Source of the DNA: Heterodontus francisci
Lineage: Eukaryota
DNA: 64,000 nucleotides
Direction: 5' to 3'
Assembly: GCF_036365525.1 (NCBI RefSeq)
Contig: NC_090413.1
Location: 23,570,299 to 23,634,298 of the forward strand
Positions within the stretch are counted from its first letter, which is position 1; each line of letters starts with the position of its first letter. The translations under genes and the position numbers were made by a program. The notes under the pieces are model-generated. The model did not search any database, was not told the DNA's origin, and worked only from the letters and a program-made list of their open reading frames with translations. Positions 671 to 55,551 of this stretch are shown here, piece by piece.

Positions 671-906
671 ATGTGAATGGGACTTGATTCTGTATTTCTA
701 TACAGATTTCTATCTTAAAACATTCCCCCCCCCCCCCCAAAAAAAATGCTGCGCCCGAAAACATGAAGTGCACGTTTCGATAGCAAATATAAGCCCGTAT
801 GAAGAGGGTTAAAGTATTTCGGAAGCCCTCTAGTGGCATCTACAGTCAGGAGCGAGGAAAAAACACACACACATAAAAAAACACACACAGACACGCACAC
901 ATAAAA

Positions 907-950
907 CCAATCAGTGGGCAGGAACAGTGACATCACCCCGGCTATTTAAG
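907..950 (+). promoter_or_regulatory. junb core promoter: CCAAT (907-911), TGACATCA ATF/AP-1 site (928-935), TATTTAA TATA-like box (943-949)
   Basis: Motifs read directly and in promoter order about 415 bp upstream of the junb ATG; TSS inferred near 975. Confidence 0.7.
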
Positions 951-1362: not shown

Positions 1363-2307
1363 ATGTCTACAAAGATGGAACAGCCATTCTACCACGATGA
1401 CACCTTCCTCTCGGGCTACGCCAGTTCAGAGAGCGGTCTCCATGACTACAGTTCCAAATATTTAAAGCAGAACATGAGCCTCAACCTGGTTGACCCGTCC
1501 AGGTCCCTCAAGCCTCACCTGCGGAACCCAGAGGACAACCTGCTCAACGCGCCCGACGTGGGGCTCCTGAAGCTGGCATCTCCCGAGCTGGAGCGGCTCA
1601 TCATCCAATCCAGCAATGGGGTGATCACCACCACGCCCACCCCCGGCCAGTATTTCTGTGCCAGGAACATCACAGACGAGCAGGAAGGCTTCGCCGACGG
1701 CTTCGTGAAGGCGCTGGAGGAGCTGCACAAGATCAATCATGTTGCGCCCAACGTGTCCATCTCCAACCCGGGCATGAGCTGCAGCGCCGCCCCCAACAAT
1801 GCCTACGGCTCCTCGGTGCCCTCCGAGGTGCCCCCCGTCTACACCAACCTCACCGCCTACAACTCCAACACTATCTCGGCCGGCGGCAGCTACCCCACCG
1901 CCACCATCAGCTACCTGCCCCAGCCTCACGCCTACAGCCTCCCCGCCGTGCCCGTGGGCCACCCGAGGCTGCAGACCCTCAAGGAGGAGCCTCAGATCGT
2001 GCCGGACGTTCAGAGCCGAGGGGAGACCCCTCCACTCTCCCCCATTGACATGGAGAACCAGGAGCGCATCAAGGCGGAGAGGAAGCGCATGAGGAACCGA
2101 GTGGCCGCCTCTAAGTGCAGGAAGAGGAAGCTGGAAAGGATCGCCAGGTTGGAGGACAAGGTGAAGACTTTGAAATCCGACAACGCCGGCTTAGCTTCCA
2201 CCGCGACCGTCCTGAGGGACCAGGTTTCTCAGCTGAAACAGAAAGTCATGACTCACATCAGCAGTGGCTGTCAGATAGTATTAACTCAAAAACTACAGGG
2301 CTTCTGA
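1363..2307 (+). CDS. junb: Transcription factor JunB (AP-1 bZIP), intronless, 314 aa
   Basis: ATG at 1363 within ORF 1192-2307: [45 protein letters not shown], basic region [17 protein letters not shown], leucine zipper, KQKVMTH. The N-terminus and KVMTH are JunB-type, and the gene is syntenic with prdx2 and rnaseh2a. Confidence 0.96.
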
Positions 2308-3189
2308 GAATGAGCGGACAAAGCAAAACGAAAAGATAAGACTGATAAGTTTGTTTAAAAAAAGAGGAGGAAAAAAACCTTTCTGATCGCACTGAAACTC
2401 CGAGAAAGTTGCATGTGGTCTGGTCTGAAGCTGTGAGACTATCCTTACAGAAAAAAAAAGACACTGAAGTCTGTACACCAGGTAACGGAGATGTAGAGAA
2501 CTGTTCAGTGTCCAGCCTTGCACAGGAGAAAGCAAAGTCTTTTTTTGGGACTTGATATACTAAGAGGGTCACGGAAATTTCTCTCGAAGCTGCAGACAAG
2601 AGTTAATTTGTAAATTATTATTTCTCTTGTTTTCTGAATTTGTTTTCTGGTTTAGTTTGTAACAAACTGAGTTGAATTTGTGTTTTCTTTTTGGACAAGT
2701 TCATGTTTTTAAGTATTTAAGTAAATGTTTTAAACTGTGAACTTTCTGTGCGCTGTTGGTCTCTTCTTTCAATTGCATGGAATAAGAGTCTGGTTTCCTG
2801 AGATACCATCTGATTTCCAGAACTTGTGTTGTTGCTACAAGCGAGACATCCCAGACTTCCTGGGAACAAATTAGGGGGTGTTATCAAGAGGGGAACTATC
2901 AGCATTAGATTGGCAAGTCCACTGCTTCCTCCTAGTCTAAGTATACCCTCAACCCCCAACCGCCCAGTCCTATTCAATCCTTAACTTCTTGGTGATCCAA
3001 ACCGTCTTCTAAACTTTGATTACTTTTTTTAAAAAAGTGGGTTTCACATTTTAAAACGTTTCATGATTGAGTCAAGTTTGTACAAACACTGGTCCCCAAG
3101 TCTGAAATTATGGTGCACAGATTAAAAGGTTTATTTTCTTTAAAAAAAAACATGGAGAAGGAAGGTGACTGTGGCATATTAGGACTATG

Positions 3190-3540
3190 GGGACCAGATG
3201 TGTCTCAGGTTCCATTCTTAGTCTATAGTCTATGCTGAGTTCAGTGAGCAGCTAGGGGTGCTACAGTTGGCCTACCGGGTTATGGAGAGGAACACTGCCA
3301 TGGGTTCCTACTCATGATTGCCAACCAGCAAGCTCTCCTACAGGCAATGTGGACATTGGGTGAAGGTGGGATTGGGCTTGGTTGTGATACCTCCCTCAGT
3401 CAACTAGCCAGCTCACATTTGCAATCTAAACTTGTATGAAGAGCGACCAGTTAGTTTGAGGTACCAAAGGTTGACTTAACACCCTGTCAACCCATACCTG
3501 AACAAGGAATCAAAACCTTCAGGAGAGGAGATGGAGCAAT
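3190..3540 (+). mobile_element. Old unclassified interspersed repeat (SINE-like), degenerate copy
   Basis: Shares motifs (tgctgagtt...ctacagttggcct...gggttcctactcatgattg...gggtgaaggtgggattgggcttgg...ccttcaggagagga) with copies near 5150-5500, 10080-10310, 11770-12180, 20560-21060, 24410-24610, 26280-26700 and 40000-40260. Confidence 0.5.
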
Positions 3541-4252
3541 AAGAAAATTGGTGAAGGAAAATAGAGAGAATAAGACATTCAGGCATTGAAGAGTCAAAGG
3601 GATGGGCTGTATGGGAAAATAGGAGACACTCAAGCTGTACTGCCTAGGGACAAGTTGAGAGGGGACCTCATCGAAGTGTATAAAATATTAAATGATGTAG
3701 CGAAGGTAAACCTAAAATATTAATTCGGGTATGAAGACCACAGGATCGAAATGGACAAGTATTGCATTTGAAATGGTAAATTGAGAGAGTTAAGGTATTA
3801 CAGGGATGAGCTTTAATGGGAAAAATGGCCTTTTCCTATCCTTAACTGATCTCATGTTTTCAAAAAAAAAGCCTGTGGCTTCTTGAAGTCCAGTTATGAT
3901 GTGGCCACCATCTGTGGATGCAGTGATGAACATATTTAAACAAAGGATTAGTCAAAGTCCTTTGAATCGTGGCCTGTTTGGCTACTGACATTCATTAGCT
4001 GCAACAGAATGCTGTTGTCTTGACATGCCACAGGTGTCCACATTGGAGACCGTGCCCTCATACTCACAAGAGGTGCCAGACCACAATTTATTTTATCTAT
4101 AGCGACCTTTAAATAAGTCCAGTTAAGATTTCTTTGAACCTCTGCCTCACTGGGCTGGGAAGGGGGGAGGGGAAGGTGGTATTTCAGCCATAATTCCTGC
4201 TCCTGATCCCTATCGAGTGATCCCTTCTGGAAAGAGAGAAGGAAAGAAACAG

Positions 4253-4620
4253 CCATTTATATAGGATATTTCATGAACTTGGGACATTCACAGCCAATTA
4301 ATTACTCGTGAAGCGTAGTCACTGTTGTAATGTAGGGAGTCACTGCAGCCAATTTTACCACAGCAAAGTCTCACAAACATTTATAAGGAAGAGTAACCAA
4401 AAAATATTTTTAGTGATGAGGGATAAATATTGACCAAGACACCATGGGAACTCCTGCTCTTCTTCAAATAGTGCTTCTATATCCACCTGAGATTGCAGCC
4501 CAGGCTTCAGTCCAATGTCTCATCTGACAGTGCAGCAGCAGATTTTGTGCTCAAGTCTCTGGAGTTGGGCCTGAACTCACAGTCTTCTGACTCCAAAGTA
4601 AGAACGAGCCAAGGTGACCA
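4253..4620 (-). mobile_element. Deu-domain tRNA-SINE (SacSINE1-like)
   Basis: Aligns by eye with the more intact copy at 16108-16544. Confidence 0.7.
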
Positions 4621-5674
4621 TGGGTTAAGCACAGGATTAGGCTTAGCTGTGATATTTATGTGCTTGACTGACTAGTGAATGCTTATTGTCCAGGTTTTCA
4701 CATTAAAATAGCCTGGAGAACTGGACACTAGATTGAGTCACCATCTTGGGGGAGAGGAGGGAAGAAACACATACACACAAAAACATCTCAAGCCCATATG
4801 GCTTATCCATTTTTAGTGCACCCTGAAAGAGTTAACCAATTAACCGACACTGGAATCATAATGAGCCTAAATAAAAATGTAAACTAGTCTACTGAATAAT
4901 TATAAGGCTTTCTCTCATGAAACATTAGAAGTTCTGTTTACAAGGAACTCCTTTGTAAAAAGACATAACTAAGTTTGCAAGAAAATGAAAGTCCTGAACA
5001 TATAATTTGTTCATAATCTGAGGGTTCAGAAATGTAGATAACATAATCTTTAATCCAGTAAAGAAATGAAAGCCAAGTGTTAGCTTTCAGTTCTCATACA
5101 GTATATTGAATGGATAAACCTTGTTGAATCACGAGGTAAAAGGAAGATTCACATTTGGCCCAGCAAGGTTTATTCCCCATCTCACCTGAAGGCACTTGCT
5201 TATGCTGGGTTACAATCCCAGTGGCTCCAGAAGCCCTTCTTGCCCAACTGGCATGAGTGAGCATGGACAATGAGTGTCAACAGGCTAAACTGTGGAAAAC
5301 ATCACAACCTCACCCAATCCTGTTCTCGCCCAATAGGCCCAGACACCCACTTCTTGGCAGGCATCACTGGATGGTGATCGGGAGCAGACAACCCAGGTTG
5401 ATTCTTCCACCCAGTAACCAAGGGCCAGTTAGGCTAATTAAAGCACTTCAACTGACATCCCATTGGAGATCAGCAACACAGCACAGTCTGTGAATCAATC
5501 TAAAACCATATTTTTACATTACTGAAGTTAAGCTCATCAATCATCCTGAGCTAAGTAAGCAGCTGTTATCTTCAGCAAATAATTGATCCAGTAATTTGAC
5601 TCTAACATCAACAAAGGAACATATTCTAAGCAAGAACTTACATTAATGAATGCATGAATTAATTAATTAATTCA

Positions 5675-6035
5675 GAATCTTTCACAATTTTAGGACATCT
5701 CAGTGCACGTTACAGCCAATGAAGTACTTTTTGAAGGGTAGTCACTCATGTAGGAAACACGGCAGCTAATTTATGCACAGCAAGCTCCCACAAACAACAA
5801 TGTGATAATGACCAGATAACCTGTTTTAGTGGTGTTTGTTGAGGGATTAACATTGGCCAGGATACCAGGGAGAACTGCCCTGCTCTTCTTCAAAATATTG
5901 TCATGGGAACTTTTACATCCACCGGAGAAGGCAGATGGGCCTCAGTTTAACTTCTCATCTGGCAGTCACCTCTGACAGTGCAGCAGTCCCTCAGTAGTGC
6001 ACTGAAGTGTCGGCTGACATTTTGTGCTGAAGTAC
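5675..6035 (-). mobile_element. Deu-domain tRNA-SINE (SacSINE1-like)
   Basis: tacagccaatgaagtactttttgaag...cacagcaagctcccacaaac...gacagtgcagcagtccctcagtagtgcactg. Confidence 0.75.
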
Positions 6036-6484
6036 ATTAAGAACCTCTTGCTAAGATATCATGAATGAAGTATATTTTATATTTGTCAAATTTACATTTT
6101 GTTCCAACAAATGGTTTTGTGTTTGTGTCACCAGAGGGCCATGCTCTGTCAAGAACGGAGGGAAAAACACTGAACAAGGAGGAATTTGAGTTGAAATTTT
6201 TAGGGTGGGAGAGGAGTCTATCAAATGACCTGGAGGATACATTTGACTTTAATCAATTAAAATGCCAGTGAATTGAGGGTGTGGAAGAATGAGATTGACT
6301 TTATCTATCTCAGCGCATAGATTGCTGCCTGATCGAACATTGTCTTTAGTTAGGGTGTGTTGTTTTCATTTTATACAGTGTGATTACAGATCTTCATCAA
6401 CAACTCTATTATCATTGTATCATGTGACTACCAGGGTGGTGGAAAGCAAACTAGATAGACCTTGGCATTTTTGTCATCTGACAA

Positions 6485-6576
6485 TTCTCATATGAAAATA
6501 AGGACATAGTCTGCCTAGTGAGGCAGTAGGGGAGAATAGTTTTAGCAGAGGAAATGTGGGATGGGTATGAGTCTAA
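6485..6576 (+). repeat. 92-bp perfect direct repeat, copy 1
   Basis: Base-for-base identical to 7570-7661. Confidence 0.95.
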
Positions 6577-7180
6577 TATGTTTTCAGTATATTTTGGCAA
6601 AAAGGAATCTTGTCCACTGCCAATGTGTACCAGAAGATAATGGGTAATGATGGTTCTACAAATCCCTAACAATGCTGATGGAATTGTTGCTGGTAAATAA
6701 TTAGAGGGAAAAAGATCCTTCTGTAGTCAATGATAGATGCCAACACTGGAATTGACCACAGACATAACAAAACGGTTTCTTGCCATTTTATACATTCCTA
6801 AGTCCCATGACATGACTTTGTCCTTGTTAGCTTCCTGCAGAACACACAGAGGTTCAGATTAAAATATATGTCAGTATATTTAAATAAAATCAATCTTTTT
6901 CTTCATTCTTTCTATTTAACAGCAGTATTTTAATATCTCATTTAATAGAGCATGATATAGCTTTAAAATTCAGTTATTTAATTCAAAGCTTTTGAATATT
7001 TAAGTTTTTAGAGTTGGATTTAAATTTATGTGAACATACATCTAAACGCATAGATTGCTTCTGGTAGGTAATTGCGAAATCTGCTGACGATACAAGGACT
7101 GACAGAGTGAAATATAATCGTTTCCTGCCCTACCCTGAAGTTGTGTAAAAACTTTAGAAAGTTGCAACAGCGTTGGCAGC

Positions 7181-7341
7181 GTGACGTGCAACGTCGAACG
7201 GGTGACCGGGGCTTTCCGCTCTGACGTGCGGAAACCAAGTCCAAATATGGGCAAAAGCGGAAACTGCGAATGATGTCAGAGCGGCTCGCTTTCCGGGAAC
7301 CCCCTCGTTGGTGTGCTGATCCAGAGCAGCTGGGAGTTTCC
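7181..7341. promoter_or_regulatory. Putative junb downstream immediate-early enhancer (CArG/Ets/CRE/kappaB/STAT cluster)
   Basis: TGACGTG 7182 and 7222; GGGGCTTTCC 7208-7217; GCGGAAAC 7228 and 7257; CCAAATATGG 7241-7250; TGATGTCA 7271-7278; TTCCGGGAA 7291-7299; GGGAACCCCC 7295-7304; GGGAGTTTCC 7332-7341. About 16 CpGs in 140 bp within CpG-depleted surroundings. Confidence 0.8.
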
Positions 7342-7569
7342 AGTTTGGCATTTCAAATGCGTACAATCCTCAAAAGAAAAAGACAAACAAAAAAAATCCA
7401 ATTTGCAAATAGATCTATTTTTACAAAGTGACGCTTTAAAACAAATGTGAAGTGGGGCTGAAAACATATTTTTAAAAAGCCTTACAGCAAAACCATCCCT
7501 CTTCCCAGCAGCACTGTTTAATGTTTTACAAGCCAGCACTGACAGATGATCCCCTGTGTTTGTTCCAGC

Positions 7570-7661
7570 TTCTCATATGAAAATAAGGACATAGTCTGCC
7601 TAGTGAGGCAGTAGGGGAGAATAGTTTTAGCAGAGGAAATGTGGGATGGGTATGAGTCTAA
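7570..7661 (+). repeat. 92-bp perfect direct repeat, copy 2
   Basis: Base-for-base identical to 6485-6576. Confidence 0.95.
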
Positions 7662-8659
7662 AATGACACCAGGTTGGATGAAAAATTTAAAGGCCTTACT
7701 TTGGCTGGCACTGAACAGCTGCCACGTTTTTGCTGATGGAACAGTAGTCGCCTCAGTCCAAAAGTAATTCATCCAGTGAAAAAAGCATTTTGAGATGATG
7801 TGATAAGGTATAAAATAAAATATATAAAAATAAAATACCAGTACCTTTATTGTCCGTATATAAAAGGAGTTTAACATCATTTTAGTGATACAGTAAATGT
7901 CAGAAATACACAATTGGTCAGATTGAAATCTGTGAAGAGAAAGTTTAATGTTTTGGGTGAAGCTTTAATGTGTATTTTCAGTTTTGACTATTTGGTTAAG
8001 CAAGGTTTTTTGTTTGGGGATGACTTAAAGAAATGACTTAATTTCTGTCATGATGATGTCAGGGGCAAGTGAAACAACTGTGAAATTTGATGTGATTCAT
8101 GTCATGATATTATCTGTTTGTAAACACATGAAAAAAGTCCCAAATATTCCTTTGTGAACAAGAACTCTGTTCTTATAATTCTGGCCTTTTGTGTATCCTG
8201 ATTTCCTTCGCCCCACAATTGGCAGCCATTCCTGTCCAGGCTCTTAGCTCTGGAATTTCCTCCCGAAACCTCTCCACTTCCCTGTCTTACTTTAAGACAT
8301 TTCTTAAAACCTAGGTCTTTCTCCAAGCTTTTGGTTACCTGACTTAATGCCCCCCTTCTTTTGCTTGGTGGCAATTTTTGTCTAATAATGTTCTCTTGAA
8401 GCATCTTGGTTTGTTTTACTACCTTAAAGGTGCTATGTAAATGCAAGTTTTTGTTGTGTGAGCCTAGACTGAAATTTGGGGAAACACCACAGGCAGGTCT
8501 GTTAGGCACATGCTCACACACACATCTTTCAATAGCTGTCATTGGATAACAACCATGTACAAGTTGTCCAACTTTTCTCCTCCTGAGCCCAAAAATATTG
8601 TAAGCAATTGTAGTACTGTATCAGGAAAGACTGAACAAATTGGGACACTTTTCTGTCAA

Positions 8660-8975
8660 AAAGAGAAAACCAAGGGGAGATCTGATACAGGTCTTTAAAT
8701 TAAAAGTGTTTGCTCGGAGAGATGATGTTTCCACTTGTCATAGAGAACAGAACCAGAGGCCATAAACACAAGATAGTCACTAATAAATCCAATAGTGAAT
8801 TCAGGAGAAACTTCTTTGCCCAGAGATTGGTGAGAATATGGAACTCGGTACCACAAGGATTAGTTGAGGCAAATAGTATAGATGCATTTATGGGAAAACA
8901 CATGAGTGAGAAAGGAATAGAAGGATATGCTGATAGGGTGAGATGAAGAGGGGTGGGAGGAGTTTTGTGTGGAGT
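8660..8975 (+). mobile_element. CR1 LINE 3' fragment
   Basis: ORF remnant FPLV..RTRGHKHKI...FRRNFFAQRLVRIWNSVP, the CR1 ORF2 C-terminus. Confidence 0.8.
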
Positions 8976-9307
8976 ATGGAGTAAATCAAAGAAACAATAC
9001 TATTTTGATAATAGCCAGTTTCTCTTAATATTTCTTTAAGGTTATAGCATAATAGTGTGAAGAAGACCCTATTTAATATTAGCAAAGGGGTAAATTCACA
9101 TTGGAATCATAGCTGGCTTAATACTTCATTGCCTGCTGCAAAAATATTATGATACTTACTGACATGTCCCCTTGGCAGCTCACAATCATCTCAAATGCAC
9201 ATTCCAATTCTTACTTAAATCAACATGTGAAGTGACAGAGAAAATAGATCTTTCAGAAAATGAGTGGATGTTATTTGAGATTAGCACAGCTTTATGTATA
9301 TGTATAG

Positions 9308-9886
9308 AACTTGCATTTATATAATGCCTTTCATGACCTCAGAATGTCCCAAAGTGCTTTACAGCCAATGACATACTTTGGAAGTATAGTGACTGTTGTA
9401 ATGTAGGAAACGTGGCAGCCTATGTGCACACAGCAAGGTCCCATAAACAGCAATGTGATATGACCAGATAATCTGGGTTATTGCATTTTTGTAGGGCTTT
9501 CCATGAACCCAAGACATTCCAAAATGTTTTACAGCCAATTAAGTATATTCCAAGTGTATTTACTGTTGAACTTGGCAAGCTCCTACAAAGGCCAATGAAA
9601 TCAATAATCTATGGTGATGGTTGAGGTTTAACTATTGATCAGGACACTGGGGAGAAAACCTGTGTTCTTTTTCAAATAATGCCATGGAATCTTTTACGCC
9701 CACCTGAGAGGGCAGCGGAGGCCTTGGTGTAACGATCATTCAAAATACTAAATTTCTGACAGTACAGCACTCCCTCAGTACTGCACTGAGGTGTCAGCCT
9801 GGATTTTTGTGCTCAAGTCTTTGAAGTGGGTCCTAAACCCACAACCTTCTGACTCAGAGGCAAAAGTGCTACCCACTAAGCCAAGG
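9308..9886 (-). mobile_element. Deu-domain tRNA-SINE with partly duplicated tail
   Basis: aacttgcatttatataatgcctttcatgac tail through the tRNA-like head (cccacaaccttctgactcagaggc); a second tail segment starts near 9485. Confidence 0.75.
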
Positions 9887-10434
9887 TGGAGAGCAGGAGT
9901 TGGACAGAACTGCTAACAGTGTGAAAAAAAGGAGACATGATGAGAGAAATAAAAGGTTATGTGAGACTCAGAGGCTGTGCGAATGGTTAAAGCAAAGTAG
10001 CAGAGGGGGAAGGAAGCAGAGAAGGTTCCAGTGGCCCTCAGGTGTGATGGAAGGAAAAGGCAGGTGGACCTCAGGGGTGCACACCACCTGCCAGCCAGGT
10101 ATCATAGGGATCCCCATCCCAAGCACCAACTCAAAATCTCCCTCATCCCTAGAAGTGCTGGTACACCATCAGGATCTGGAGCCCTGTCTGATTTGCTCTA
10201 GCCCAGGGTTGCACCGATCATCATCCCACCTCCGCCTGAGGCCAGCTAGCTCATTGCAGACCGGGAATCGAATCTGAGACCTTGTAGTCCCTCTAGCTTA
10301 GTGCTACACCAGGAAGATGATCATTACAAGGCTGGTAGGGGTTGAAGTCAATATTTACTTCTATTTACTCAGAAGAAAAATGAGGCACTCCCTAGTCTCA
10401 AAATCCATGTCATATTTAACTGCATAGAGGCAGA

Positions 10435-11703
10435 ATCTTCACACCCTGCTTCTTGTAAGGACTCCATCCCATTCTCCCAGTTGCTCCATCTCAGAAGCAT
10501 CTGTTCTGATGAGGCAACCTTCCACAACAGCACTTCTGGCATGTCTTCCTTTGTCCTCAACCGAAGAATCCCGCCCACTGTGGTTGACAGGGCCCTCAAC
10601 CGTGTCTGACCTATTTCCTGTACTTCTGCCCTCACCCTTTCCCCTCCCTCCTAGAACCACGACAGGGTTTTCCTTGTCCTCACTTTCCACTCCACCAGCC
10701 TCCACATCCAAAGGATCATCCTCCACCATTTCCACCACCTCCAGCATGATGCCACTACCAAACACATCTTCCCCTCCCTTCCCTTCCCCTATTAGCATTC
10801 CAAAGGGATCATTCCCTCTGCAACACCCTGGTCCACTCCTCCACCACCCCCGACACCTCGTCCCCTTCCTACAGCACCTACCCTAATCACAGGAAGTGCA
10901 ATACCTGCCCCTTTACCTCCTCTCTCCTCACCATCCAAAGCCCCAAACACTCCTTCCAGGTGAAGCAGCGATTTACTTGTACTTCCTTCAATTTAGTGTA
11001 CTGTATTCGCTGCTCACAATGTGGTCCCCTCTACATTGGGGAGACCAAACATAGGTTGGGTGATCACTTTGCGGAACACCTCCGCTCAGTCTGAAAGCAT
11101 GACCCCGACCTTCCAGTTGCTTGCCATTTCAACACACACCCCTGCACTCCTGCCCACATTTCTGTCCTTAGTCTGGTGCAGTGTACCAGTGAAGATCAAA
11201 ACAAGCTCAAGGAGCTGCACCTCATCTTTCGATTAGGCACTCTACAGCCTTGCAGACTCAAAATTAAGTTCAACAATTTCAGAGCATGACTGGCCCTTTT
11301 TAAATATTTTTCTATATTTTTAGTATCTTATTTTATTTTTTTAACCATGTGCCTGTTTTTTCATGTGGACAGAGCTGCTCATTGTTCTGCCATTAACACT
11401 CTCTCTAGACTAATGCGTTGTCTTTCACCACAAGCATTAACACACACTTTGCCTTTGTCCCATGACAATTACTCAATTTCTTCTGCCCTCTACCCTATCA
11501 CACACCTTCCCTTTTGTTCCCTTCCCCACAAAACCCACATCACAGCAGCACCCCCCACCCACCTTCACTTGCTTAAAGCTTAATTATTTTCTAACCTTTG
11601 CCAGTTCTGATGAAAGGTCACAGACCTGAAACATTAGCTCTGCTTCTCTCTCCACAGATGCTGTCTGACCTGCTGAATATTTCCAGCACTTTCTGCTTTT
11701 ATT
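10435..11703 (+). mobile_element. Penelope-like retroelement (Neptune-type) 3' part: RT C-terminus, GIY-YIG endonuclease remnant and pseudo-LTR
   Basis: Translates HPASCKDSIPFSQLLHLRSICSD and CTSFNLVYCIRCSQCGPLYIGETKHRLGDHFAEHL with frameshifts; ends in a pLTR carrying a hammerhead core. Confidence 0.85.
11603..11640 (+). ncRNA. Minimal type I hammerhead ribozyme remnant in the Penelope pLTR
   Basis: CTGATGA 11607-11613, stem II AGGTC/GACCT, GAAA 11628-11631, then CATTA (probably CpG-decayed CGTTA). Confidence 0.65.
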
Positions 11704-12809
11704 AGAGGCAGACTCCTCCTGCCCTAGAATAATTTTGGGAATCTCTTCAATTGGATCTACAGGCAAGCAAAGTTAGCACATCTCACAGTTGGCCTCACTG
11801 TTTCTGGCCTAGAGAGGGGAACAATCCACTAGGGCTCCTCATTCCTGATTCAGTGGGCCCTGCTGGAAACTATGAAGCCTGATTTCTGTGTAAGTGAATG
11901 GGTTTTGAGTGAGTTACGTTTGGGCCCTATAATTGTGCGGACTTCTGACAATGATAGAAACATCCTTACCCATGACGCCATCTACAGCCAAATAGCCTGC
12001 CAATCCTTGAGCCAAGGCTTTCTGCCTCTACAGTCACCAGCCTGCAATCAGTCATTTTAATCTATCCTGAACTGGGGAGCACCAGAGAGAAATAGGAATC
12101 TCTGGCCTTAATGTTTAGGCTCAATCCTGAGAATGGTCACTTGGGTGAGATACCAAAGGAGCAATCTGCACCCATGGGCCCAAGAATTAGTAGCTTCAGA
12201 AGGAGGGAGAAAATGGTGAGCTGTGTAATTTCACTGTACACAAAGCCATTTTGACCAATGTAAATACTAATGTGTTATTTGTTGGTCTGTGTGTGTGGAG
12301 TCTAACTGATGTGAATATTATCTGAAGCTCTTTAAGTAACAGCAGCATAAATGGGATGGGAAAAAACCCCAGCATCTCTGCATTACTGGAGCATACCCTG
12401 AAATGAGAATGTGTAGGCGCTGCAAGCTTGTTGTGTTTGTTTCCCAGCAGTGTAACACAATACATGGAATGCAGAATGGGTCACAATAAGCCTTTTCGAA
12501 GAAACACTAATTATGTGATCATAAAATAACTTCAACTCTTCTAAAATGATTTATTTGTACCATGAAGGAATTATCGTTTGTTTAACATGATTAAAATATG
12601 GTCCCACATTCCTTCCTGAAAAGACAAGATCCCTTACATTTTGCAAAGGGATTTTTTTCCAAAGTCTCTTTCCCTCCCTTTTTCTCCCCTCGCCCCCTGA
12701 CTGTTCTGACGGTTTCTCAGTATTGTTCTTTGTAGATCAGCTACTGTCAGTCACCTTTTATTTATGAACTTACACCATAGGTTACCATAGTCTAAAGTCC
12801 TTAGATCCT

Positions 12810-15367: not shown

Positions 15368-16107
15368 CCTGTGTATTACATACATAATGGTACTTAAAAA
15401 TCTTATAATCCTATGTATATAAAACCCTTGCATTGAGAAGGATCCATCAATTAGAGGCTGCACTTCATATGTCCCATTGCAGATGTCACACGTCAGACGT
15501 CATACTTTAGATGTCACACTTCAGACATCACATTTCCAATGACATGATGTGCAACAAATGGAAAGCAATCTTTTTTTAAAATGTGTAAACCAGAAAGCCA
15601 GTCATTTCCTGCTTTTTTTTGACCTTGTAGAGGAGCCAGGGATTTGCAGAGAGCTGCCAAGCTACAAAGAAACAATTATGCTCTAACTGACGTCAGGGTC
15701 TATCTGCTTGTAGCAATTAAACTTTGTGACATTAAATAAACAGTTTAGATTCTGACAGATCCACATTAGCAGCATAGTAATACATTGTGGGCTATATAGC
15801 ATCATGCTCTACCAGTGAAACCAATAAATCCGGAATGTAAAGTTAGTGTCAGTAATGGTGACCGTGAACTACCAGATTGTTGTTAAAAAAATCCATCTAG
15901 TTCACTAACGTCTTTTCATCCTTAGCTTGCCTGGTCAGATTTCTTAGACCGTGTTTAAAAGAGCACACAAAAGGACATTTAAGTTTGGAGAGTAATATAT
16001 TTGGTCTGGTTTGAGCCTCATTTGATTCCTACCTTGGGATTCTTCAGCTTTTGATTACACAGGTTGCCATTTCATTCTAATTATCTATGTATTCTCGTAA
16101 TCTGTAA

Positions 16108-30046: not shown

Positions 30047-30132
30047 CTAGGACTGTTTCTCAAAGAACTTTTTGCTGTCATTCACATCAGGCTTGATAGT
30101 ATCATGGCCAGGCTTCCAGCCAGCAGGGCAGA
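30047..30132 (-). CDS. prdx2: Peroxiredoxin-2, last coding exon (resolving Cys)
   Basis: (V)[27 protein letters not shown]; acceptor tttctag; 86 nt. Confidence 0.93.
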
Positions 30133-30608
30133 CTAGAAACAAAAAAAAAAAAGGGGACATGTTAGTTTAGTACATTGAAAAAAAAAAGTGACCCTTGCAA
30201 TACACAAATCCTGCTAATGTAGTACAGTGCAGCTGGCTATTGACATGGACCACTGACCAAGATCCAGTGTCTGAACCAATACAAAGAACCTTGCTGTTTA
30301 CTTCCAGCAGGTCCTAGATGCCAAGGGAATATGACAAGGACATGGGATTAAGACAGTCTTAGGTAAGAATCCAACTCAGAACAAAGACTTGTACTGTACA
30401 GGAAGGACACTAAAATGTAGCTGGCTAGTGATTGTTGTAATGGAACAATATTTTGAAGTTCACTATTGTAGAATGACTGCTAGCTGCTGCTTGGCCCATC
30501 ATTTTTTTTTAAATAAAAAGTGCAAGACTAGTACTCTTCATTGCATTGTTAATCCTAGAGCATTGCAACATTACATGAAATAAACTGCACAAGTAAGAGA
30601 TAAATCAC

Positions 30609-30739
30609 CTTCTCCATGTTTGTCAGTGAATTGAAAGGCCTGCACCAGCCTTAGAGTCTCATCTACTGAACGGCCAACTGGAAGGTCATTGATTGTAATC
30701 TGACGCAGGATTCCCTTCTCATCAATAATAAAGAGACCT
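30609..30739 (-). CDS. prdx2: Peroxiredoxin-2, coding exon 4
   Basis: (R)[43 protein letters not shown]; AG/GT boundaries; 131 nt. Confidence 0.95.
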
Positions 30740-31222
30740 CTAAAAATGGGAGAAAATTACAAGTTACTAGGAAAGTCATTTACCCCAAAGCCCATTTTTA
30801 AACTCAACCTAAAATCCAGTTCAATTTTAAACAGCCCTCAGTTCAATTTATAGCTTGTCAACTTGTAATAAAGCTTTTCTTTAACTTGAAGGCTCACTGA
30901 CGCACAAGGTCAATAACTAGAAGTTTCCCCCTTTACTTCAAGTTCGTAAAAAGTAGTGAACATTTGGAACCCAACTTCACACCAGCACCTCAAATGCTAC
31001 TTGGAGAACCAGAAGTTCTCATTTGGATGTCCCACATGGGAAGTGGATAATTTAATGCCCATTACACTTAACTAAACTAAAATACCAACACTAATTAATC
31101 CTCAGCTCAAGACTAAGACTGATTACAAAGCAGATAGCAGCCCAAGGAACAGAGATAAATCAGAAGTAATTGGGGGAAAGTGTCAAGACTCCAGATACCA
31201 AATGTTCTAAACATATACTGAC

Positions 31223-31345
31223 CTGTAAGCAATCCCTTCATCCTCCTTCAGAACACCATAGTCTTTGGAGATGGACTGAGTCAAGTCAGCAACCAGTGGG
31301 ATTTTCATGTGGCCAATACCACCCTGTTTACGAGGAGTGTTGATC
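31223..31345 (-). CDS. prdx2: Peroxiredoxin-2, coding exon 3
   Basis: (W)[40 protein letters not shown](R); 123 nt. Confidence 0.95.
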
Positions 31346-32201
31346 CTGAAAAGTGTATTAGTTGATGTCTTAAGTTTATAAACGGAAGAGAAAATAGCTT
31401 GGCAAGTTTAAAGGAAGCGAATACATTCTCCATATACTTCACTTCCCTAAAGAAGCTCAAATGCAAGGGCATGAGACATTCACAAGTGAACATTCAACAT
31501 GCACCCCACCCCAACTTTTAAAATGAAAGTAAGTTGATTTATGCTCAACTAGAAATCAAAACTAGAATGAGCAGATTACAAAACTAGTTAATCTTATAGC
31601 TGTTGGAAGTATTTGGACAGATTAGTATCAGATGGGCAATGTTTAGTTACAGCTGTGGTTTTTATACACATTTTTCCTCCATTTATTGACAGAAGGCAAT
31701 TAGTTTCACCTCCCAACATTTAATAGTCAATCTTCAGGGATAAGCTTCTGATCAAGACTCAAGAACTGATCTCCATAGAAGAGTCCATTAAATTGTTCTA
31801 AAGGAGCACATCTATCTTCCTGCCCTTCCCAACTACCAGGGAGGTAGTCTGAAGGATTAGAGGCTCCACTGCTAAATCAGTTAATAATTCAGCTCCATTA
31901 TAATTAGAGATCCTGTCAGTGCAAGGAATACTATGAAACAGTACTAAGTAGCCAATCTATTTGATTAGACAAAGCAGTATTGGCCACTAATTAACCCAGA
32001 ATCCAGCTGTACAAGGACAGAACTATGGGACAAACAGTCATTCACCATGTTTCATAATTTGAATACCTTGAAATACCAAGCAGCAACATTTCATATAGCC
32101 AATATCTAACTAGCAAGCCAAAAAGAGAGTTCAGAGTATCTTTAAGACCCAACTTTTTTCTTAATTAGAAGTGGACTTGCTGAAAGTATAGTGATTCTTA
32201 C

Positions 32202-32355
32202 CAGGCCAAGTGGCTGAAGTGAGAATCTGTGGAGGCACCAATTACTTCACAGTTGATCTTGCGAAACTCATCAGCTCGGTCACTGTATGCGATGATCTCC
32301 GTTGGACAGACAAAGGTGAAATCCAGGGGGTAGAAGAAGAATACAACATACTTTC
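32202..32355 (-). CDS. prdx2: Peroxiredoxin-2, coding exon 2 (peroxidatic Cys)
   Basis: (G)[50 protein letters not shown](W); 154 nt; HFSH rather than the PRDX1 HFCH. Confidence 0.95.
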
Positions 32356-32499
32356 CTAGAGTAGGGAAAGATGGCAAGACATTGATATTTACTCAATGCA
32401 CTCAGCTAGTTGAGCCTTGGTCATCAACTGCTGAATGGATAAATGGATGCCAACACAAGGTGGTAGCTTGTCAAGTAGTAAGAACTGTAGAAAACTGGT

Positions 32500-55424: not shown

Positions 55425-55551
55425 ATGGATCTGAGTGAGTTTGAGCGGGACAGCAGCAGCAGTTGCCGGCTGGTGTCGGCCGTTCCCACCGCCTGCCGGA
55501 CTGAGGATTGCTGCCTGGGCATCGACGAGGCGGGTCGGGGGCCGGTGCTGG
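55425..55551 (+). CDS. rnaseh2a: Ribonuclease H2 subunit A, coding exon 1
   Basis: [42 protein letters not shown](G) with the catalytic DEAGRGP motif; GTGAGT donor; 127 nt. Confidence 0.95.

Follow-up and report, generated by a model that had tools for sequence, protein, structure and literature searches.

Serum response elements in the promoters of fos and egr pair a CArG box with a neighbouring Ets site, with a CRE/ATF site close by. Immediate-early promoters are likewise characterised by CArG, Ets and CRE sites in sequence that keeps its CpGs. Duplicated conserved non-coding elements sit beside paralogous genes, mostly developmental ones, and align at the nucleotide level. Mouse junB carries a STAT/NF-kB composite site in which the two motifs overlap by 5 nt. 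The closest described system is the 3' enhancer E of mouse junB (+2022/+2237), which is about 200 bp long and lies 200 bp beyond the poly(A) site (PMC3799436). As described there, enhancer E has four kB sites, three of them functional, and is joined to the paused junB promoter by a pre-formed loop; the account in PMC2833204 agrees. The serum response of mouse junB is mediated by a downstream CArG box (PMC516031). An SRF summit at +2138 of mouse Junb has co-bound Elk-1, is DNase-positive and has a Hi-C link, and an upstream SRF peak lies at -1429 (PMC5179500). For mouse Jun, the same source places the nearest SRF peak 3' of the gene, with its summit at +16,495 from the start site; this peak is DNase-positive and is one of the 251 among 2,577 SRF peaks with co-bound Elk-1 (PMC5179500). 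An earlier note on the DNA studied here had described a mammalian junB 3' enhancer with SRE, CRE, NF-kB and STAT elements, and the mouse literature fits that description (PMC3799436, PMC516031, PMC5179500). A search of titles and the starts of abstracts found no shark or conserved junb enhancer.

The window analysed here is a 64-kb stretch of shark DNA. It contains junb and, 3' of it, a block of motifs that is a real feature and probably the shark member of this known element. The features are as follows (motif sites were called from the sequence).

820..949, plus strand: likely junb proximal promoter, as predicted (Ets core 820, CCAAT 907, CRE-like 928, TATA-like 943)
1363..2307, plus strand: junb coding sequence, one exon, 314 aa, likely target gene (Jun protein, placed by tree)
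7171..7341, no strand assigned: CpG-retaining motif module, candidate 3' enhancer (single genome match)
7182..7189, plus strand: half-CRE 1, TGACGTGC, 59 bp 5' of the CArG box
7208-7217, plus strand: kB site 1; a 12-mer of a mouse primer extends to 7219
7222..7229, plus strand: half-CRE 2, TGACGTGC, overlapping Ets-type site 1
7228..7235, plus strand: Ets-type site 1, GCGGAAAC
7241..7250, no strand assigned: perfect CArG box (predicted SRF site)
7257..7264, plus strand: Ets-type site 2, GCGGAAAC
7271..7278, no strand assigned: CRE/ATF-like octamer, TGATGTCA, one mismatch from the full CRE
7291..7304, no strand assigned: composite of GAS (7291-7299) and kB site 2 (7295-7304), 5 nt in common
7332..7341, plus strand: kB site 3
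30116..32380, minus strand: 2-Cys peroxiredoxin exons, synteny marker (homology)
55425..55550, plus strand: first coding exon of RNase H2 subunit A, synteny marker (E-value: 1e-13)

The product of the 1363-2307 open reading frame is a Jun protein with 96% identity to one from white shark. A tree of 32 proteins, which contains no JunD references, places it among chondrichthyan JunB-like proteins and chimaera junba (96/92); the whole JunB group that includes it has values of 86/94, under the starred threshold. The same-genome locus L003 falls in the c-Jun group of this tree, whereas the window junb does not. Past junb, a 2-Cys peroxiredoxin gene (minus strand) is followed by RNASEH2A (plus strand), the same as the human order, JUNB-PRDX2-RNASEH2A. 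The peroxiredoxin exon tested scores higher against PRDX1 (103.8 bits) than against PRDX2 (90.1 bits). The JunB-clade placement and these neighbours uphold the earlier claim that the module is downstream of junb, and its start, 4,864 bp after the stop codon, agrees with the ~4.9 kb given there. A scan of the 11 kb 5' of junb gave no strict CArG box. At c-jun, a strict CArG box does occur 5' of the gene, at L003 556-565 and about 950 bp before the start codon. Among shark junb orthologues, several carry no annotation beyond "AP-1-like" or "Jun-like". UniRef entry P0005 bears the name of a bacterium, Kangiella spongicola, but its sequence is JunB of a cartilaginous fish and pairs in the tree with a protein from an electric ray (100/100); contamination or mislabelling is likely.

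Every motif listed in the earlier note was found at its position, and all of them lie within 160 bp (7182-7341). The perfect CArG box (7241-7250) is located between two GCGGAAAC Ets-type sites (7228 and 7257). Two copies of TGACGTGC start 40 bp apart (7182 and 7222), with TGATGTCA at 7271. Of the three kB sites (7208-7217, 7295-7304 and 7332-7341), the second shares 5 nt with a perfect GAS (7291-7299). TGACGTGC is a half-CRE only, not a full CRE, and could also suit HIF or XBP1/CREB3-type factors; the Ets sites are without the ideal 3' flank of the consensus. A 10-bp inverted repeat (7216-7225 / 7275-7284) puts kB and CRE sites on either side of the CArG box, which gives the module some inner symmetry.

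The 171-bp module contains 11 sites of five consensus classes (CArG, CRE half-site, kB, GAS and Ets core), a count in which two of the four Ets-core matches overlap kB1 and the GAS. Dinucleotide shuffles have a mean of 0.56 sites and a maximum of 5, with 0 of 20,000 reaching 11, and none of 6,348 other windows in the 64-kb stretch exceeds 2; the classes are those named in the earlier note and were thus picked post hoc, but the margin is still wide. The module has 16 CpGs (about 16 had been claimed), with an observed/expected ratio of 1.09 as against 0.29 for the 64-kb window. This is the top count for 171 bp in the window, above that of the junb coding sequence (15). Such retention suggests that the module is unmethylated in the germ line. 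The module has one match in the 6.0-Gb genome and is thus single-copy. The GAS/kB composite is not rare on its own, since the genome has 25 occurrences of its 14-mer type, compared with 43 for the control. That the module is a chance cluster or a functionless transposon remnant is extremely improbable: single motifs are common, and 10 of 13 background matches to a CArG-Ets-CRE pattern (see below) belong to two families of similar sequences, but no shuffle reaches the site count, the module is single-copy and its CpGs are kept in a depleted genome.

Repeat matches cover just 735 of the 4,863 bases between the junb stop codon and the module (about 300 kb searched). A 96-bp direct repeat (99% identical; 6485-6580 and 7570-7665) flanks a 989-bp segment containing the module. 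It has no genome copies beyond these two and may be a recent local templated duplication; recombination between the pair could delete the enhancer. The idea of a LINE tail ahead of this repeat was unsupported on search. At 15490-15700 of the window, a full CRE (15688) and two half-CREs (15490-15502) lie in CpG-poor sequence.

No Rfam match was found for the module or within 2300-12000 of the window. This result bears on the proposal that the module serves as the promoter for a non-coding transcript missing from the annotation, or that it mainly enhances peroxiredoxin or RNASEH2A. Immediate-early promoters do have the same mix of sites and CpGs, which would suit a promoter. However, nearby open reading frames of at least 100 aa are on the minus strand only, junb is the nearest gene found and the mouse element acts on junb. 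We regard a promoter or another main target as very unlikely.

Direct comparison of the mouse and shark sequences was made with three published primers. The distal primer, which lies over a functional kB site mutated in PMC3799436, has 12 nt identical to shark kB1 (7208..7219), the sole such match in the 64-kb window. The remaining two have no match of at least 7 nt in the module. One of these two has a 13-mer match at 11095, inside a retroelement-like stretch. As the 12-mer is just 2 nt longer than the common kB decamer, and given this 13-mer, chance yields such matches. The 12-mer is antisense in mouse E and sense in shark, which would imply an inversion. The spacing instead fits mouse in the same orientation, within the limited precision of the summit: the mouse CRE-like site is ~14 bp from the SRF summit and the summit ~90 bp from the distal kB site, and the shark CRE2-CArG-kB3 spacing is 20 and 91 bp. 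Since the mouse parts described (kB sites, STAT/kB composite, CRE-like site and a CArG box with SRF and Elk-1) all have a sequence counterpart, the shark block holds the full parts list. The earlier proposal that the module is the cartilaginous-fish orthologue of the mammalian enhancer is supported as regards gene identity, position and motif content. As regards alignment, the comparison was with primers only, of which one of three matches the module, over 12 nt and in the opposite orientation. From these features, orthology with the mammalian junB 3' enhancer is likely.

Other species were also searched. A word search of sequencing runs gave 20 matching runs among the 24 rows listed, with no RNA run among those listed. 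Organisms C-F have just 0.08-0.13 of the 38 words. Organism B (run X9) is near-identical to the shark in module and flanks alike and is thus uninformative. Runs X13, X17 and X19 have no contig that covers the module, but contigs are filtered and this result therefore carries no weight. Prokaryote genome contigs have no Jun relative and no match to the motif pattern. Six jun loci were found in metagenomes, four of them distant. A metagenome fish junb contig is transcript-length and too short to reach an enhancer, and a fish non-junb paralogue has no module in 7.5 kb of 3' flank.

The flanks of three other jun-family loci of the same genome were scanned as a control. The paralogue that we presume to be junD has no module in 30 kb of 3' flank, and its CpG peak is repeat-like. 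A fourth jun has a weak cluster without a CArG box in 30 kb of 3' flank. This locus (G000:C1:268975865-268976443; L005) is divergent and matches residues 114-308 only. Its N-terminal half was not found in the adjoining 10 kb, and it is possibly a decayed or spliced ohnologue. At c-jun, there is a single-copy, CpG-rich block (G000:C8:61220259-61220411; L014 2260-2412) with a CArG box 2,932 bp past the stop codon. This block is new here and more surprising than the junb module. Its CArG 10-mer is identical to that of junb and on the same strand. Relative to the CArG box, the c-jun block has half-CREs at -59 and -52, an Ets site at +40, a full CRE at +48 and a GAS-like 9-mer at +85; the junb module has half-CREs at -59 and -19, an Ets site at +17, a CRE-like site at +30 and a GAS at +50. 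The order CRE-half, CArG, Ets, CRE, GAS-like is thus common to both, but the spacings differ. The c-jun block has no kB sites. As a paralogous pair, the c-jun block is on the same (3') side as the junb module, and such a block occurs at one of the three paralogues examined.

A tight pattern matches these two blocks only in the genome (control 0), a circular result because the pattern was fitted to both. A looser CArG-Ets-CRE pattern has 17 genome matches (control 18), of which 15 were examined and two on C28 left out. Only junb and c-jun among the 15 combine at least 14 CpGs with a half-CRE upstream and a GAS-like site downstream. The other 13 have 3-10 CpGs, and the two families mentioned above, whose members are mutually similar, account for 10 of them. 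From the 16 non-junb matches in 6.0 Gb, ~0.0002 matches are expected by chance in the 80 kb of 3' flank covered, a figure that errs on the optimistic side, as both the gap limits and the GAS-like variant had been fixed after viewing the c-jun site. A site on contig C51 with 13 nt around the CArG box in common was rejected as a relative of the module; it is CpG-poor and, with no recognisable gene in ~20 kb on either side, was classed as background.

From the arrangement of these sites, we lean slightly towards a common origin, in which a single 3' signal-integrating enhancer (CRE-half, CArG, Ets, CRE, GAS) older than the jun/junb duplication would have passed to both genes. The kB sites, and with them the NF-kB input behind the role of junb in inflammation, would then be a junb gain or a c-jun loss, and the mammalian Jun SRF/Elk-1 site an unrecognised twin. 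The jun/junb duplication is older than the shark/bony-fish split. Because a similar block 3' of c-jun would place the core before that duplication, the jawed-vertebrate-ancestor date of the earlier note may underestimate the age of the core, not overestimate it. Alignment of the junb and c-jun blocks is no better than that of shuffles (296, 192 and 815 of 1,000 score as high under three scoring schemes). This result and the two paralogues without a block mean that the blocks may have converged; sites of this kind may also arise separately at different immediate-early genes.

A similar argument can be applied to junb itself. A signal-responsive junb enhancer could have arisen independently in sharks, using the same factors through the same selection on immediate-early genes. 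This would fit the lack of cross-species alignment, the different distance, the conflicting orientation signs and the junb/c-jun alignment scores. It fits poorly with the same gene side, size and unusual STAT/kB overlap as the mouse element as reported, and with a CArG-Ets-CRE order that is uncommon in this genome (just 17 matches in 6.0 Gb). An independent origin is thus unlikely. The 170-bp CpG-rich block is likely orthologous to the junB 3' enhancer of mammals, and several signals would each turn on junb through it in a matter of minutes. Clustering, a CpG ratio of 1.09, single copy, JunB placement, neighbours, the kB1 12-mer and the order and strand of the c-jun block all argue for orthology; the lack of an aligned mammalian, bony-fish or diverged shark sequence, the primer matches that chance can yield, the orientation conflict between 12-mer and spacing and a far larger distance than in mouse, little of it matched by repeats, argue against it.

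A model for orthologous function, drawn from mouse and general knowledge, can be proposed. The module would be a constitutively open, unmethylated 3' enhancer. SRF on the CArG box, with an adjoining ERK-controlled Ets factor of the Elk-1 type, would provide ERK/serum input. CREB/ATF dimers on the CRE-like sites would provide cAMP and stress kinase input, NF-kB on the three kB sites TLR/TNF input and STAT3 on the GAS IL-6-type cytokine input, with STAT3 competing or cooperating with NF-kB at the overlap. The module would loop to the junb promoter ~6.3 kb away and free paused polymerase as in mouse. We infer all of these binding and looping steps from mouse. A second and less certain part of the model is that the CRE-CArG-Ets-CRE-GAS core came from the jun/junb ancestor gene, with kB sites gained at junb or lost at c-jun. 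If orthology holds, this is an inducible, non-developmental enhancer with wiring kept in every jawed-vertebrate lineage. Should the c-jun twin prove real, the pair is a compact natural experiment in input splitting between duplicated immediate-early genes, with a serum/cAMP/STAT core common to both and NF-kB at junb only. The twin also points to a specific mammalian Jun element, at mouse chr4:94,701,699-94,703,065 in the coordinates of the PMC5179500 table.

Like duplicated conserved non-coding elements, the junb and c-jun blocks flank two genes of an ancient duplication on the same side; unlike them, they have a motif order in common and no alignment. The mouse Jun SRF/Elk-1 site is downstream and Elk-1 co-bound, as the shark c-jun block would predict, but is 13.3 kb past the gene end rather than 2.9 kb past the stop codon. 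The table in PMC5179500 gives it no Hi-C link to a start site, and the two are likened by position and predicted binding, not sequence. The reported mouse enhancer E and the shark module are both 3' of junb and of similar size (~200 bp and 160-171 bp), and both have several kB sites, a STAT/kB composite, a CRE-like site and a CArG box with Ets. Mouse E is ~200 bp past the poly(A) site and has four kB sites, whereas the shark module is 4.9 kb past the stop codon and has three by consensus. Function and SRF/Elk-1 binding are known from mouse, and the shark element is known from sequence alone. The CArG box, adjoining Ets site and nearby CRE/ATF site are also those of the fos/egr serum response elements; these are 5' and proximal, whereas the shark block lies 3' at a distance and has kB and GAS sites in addition.
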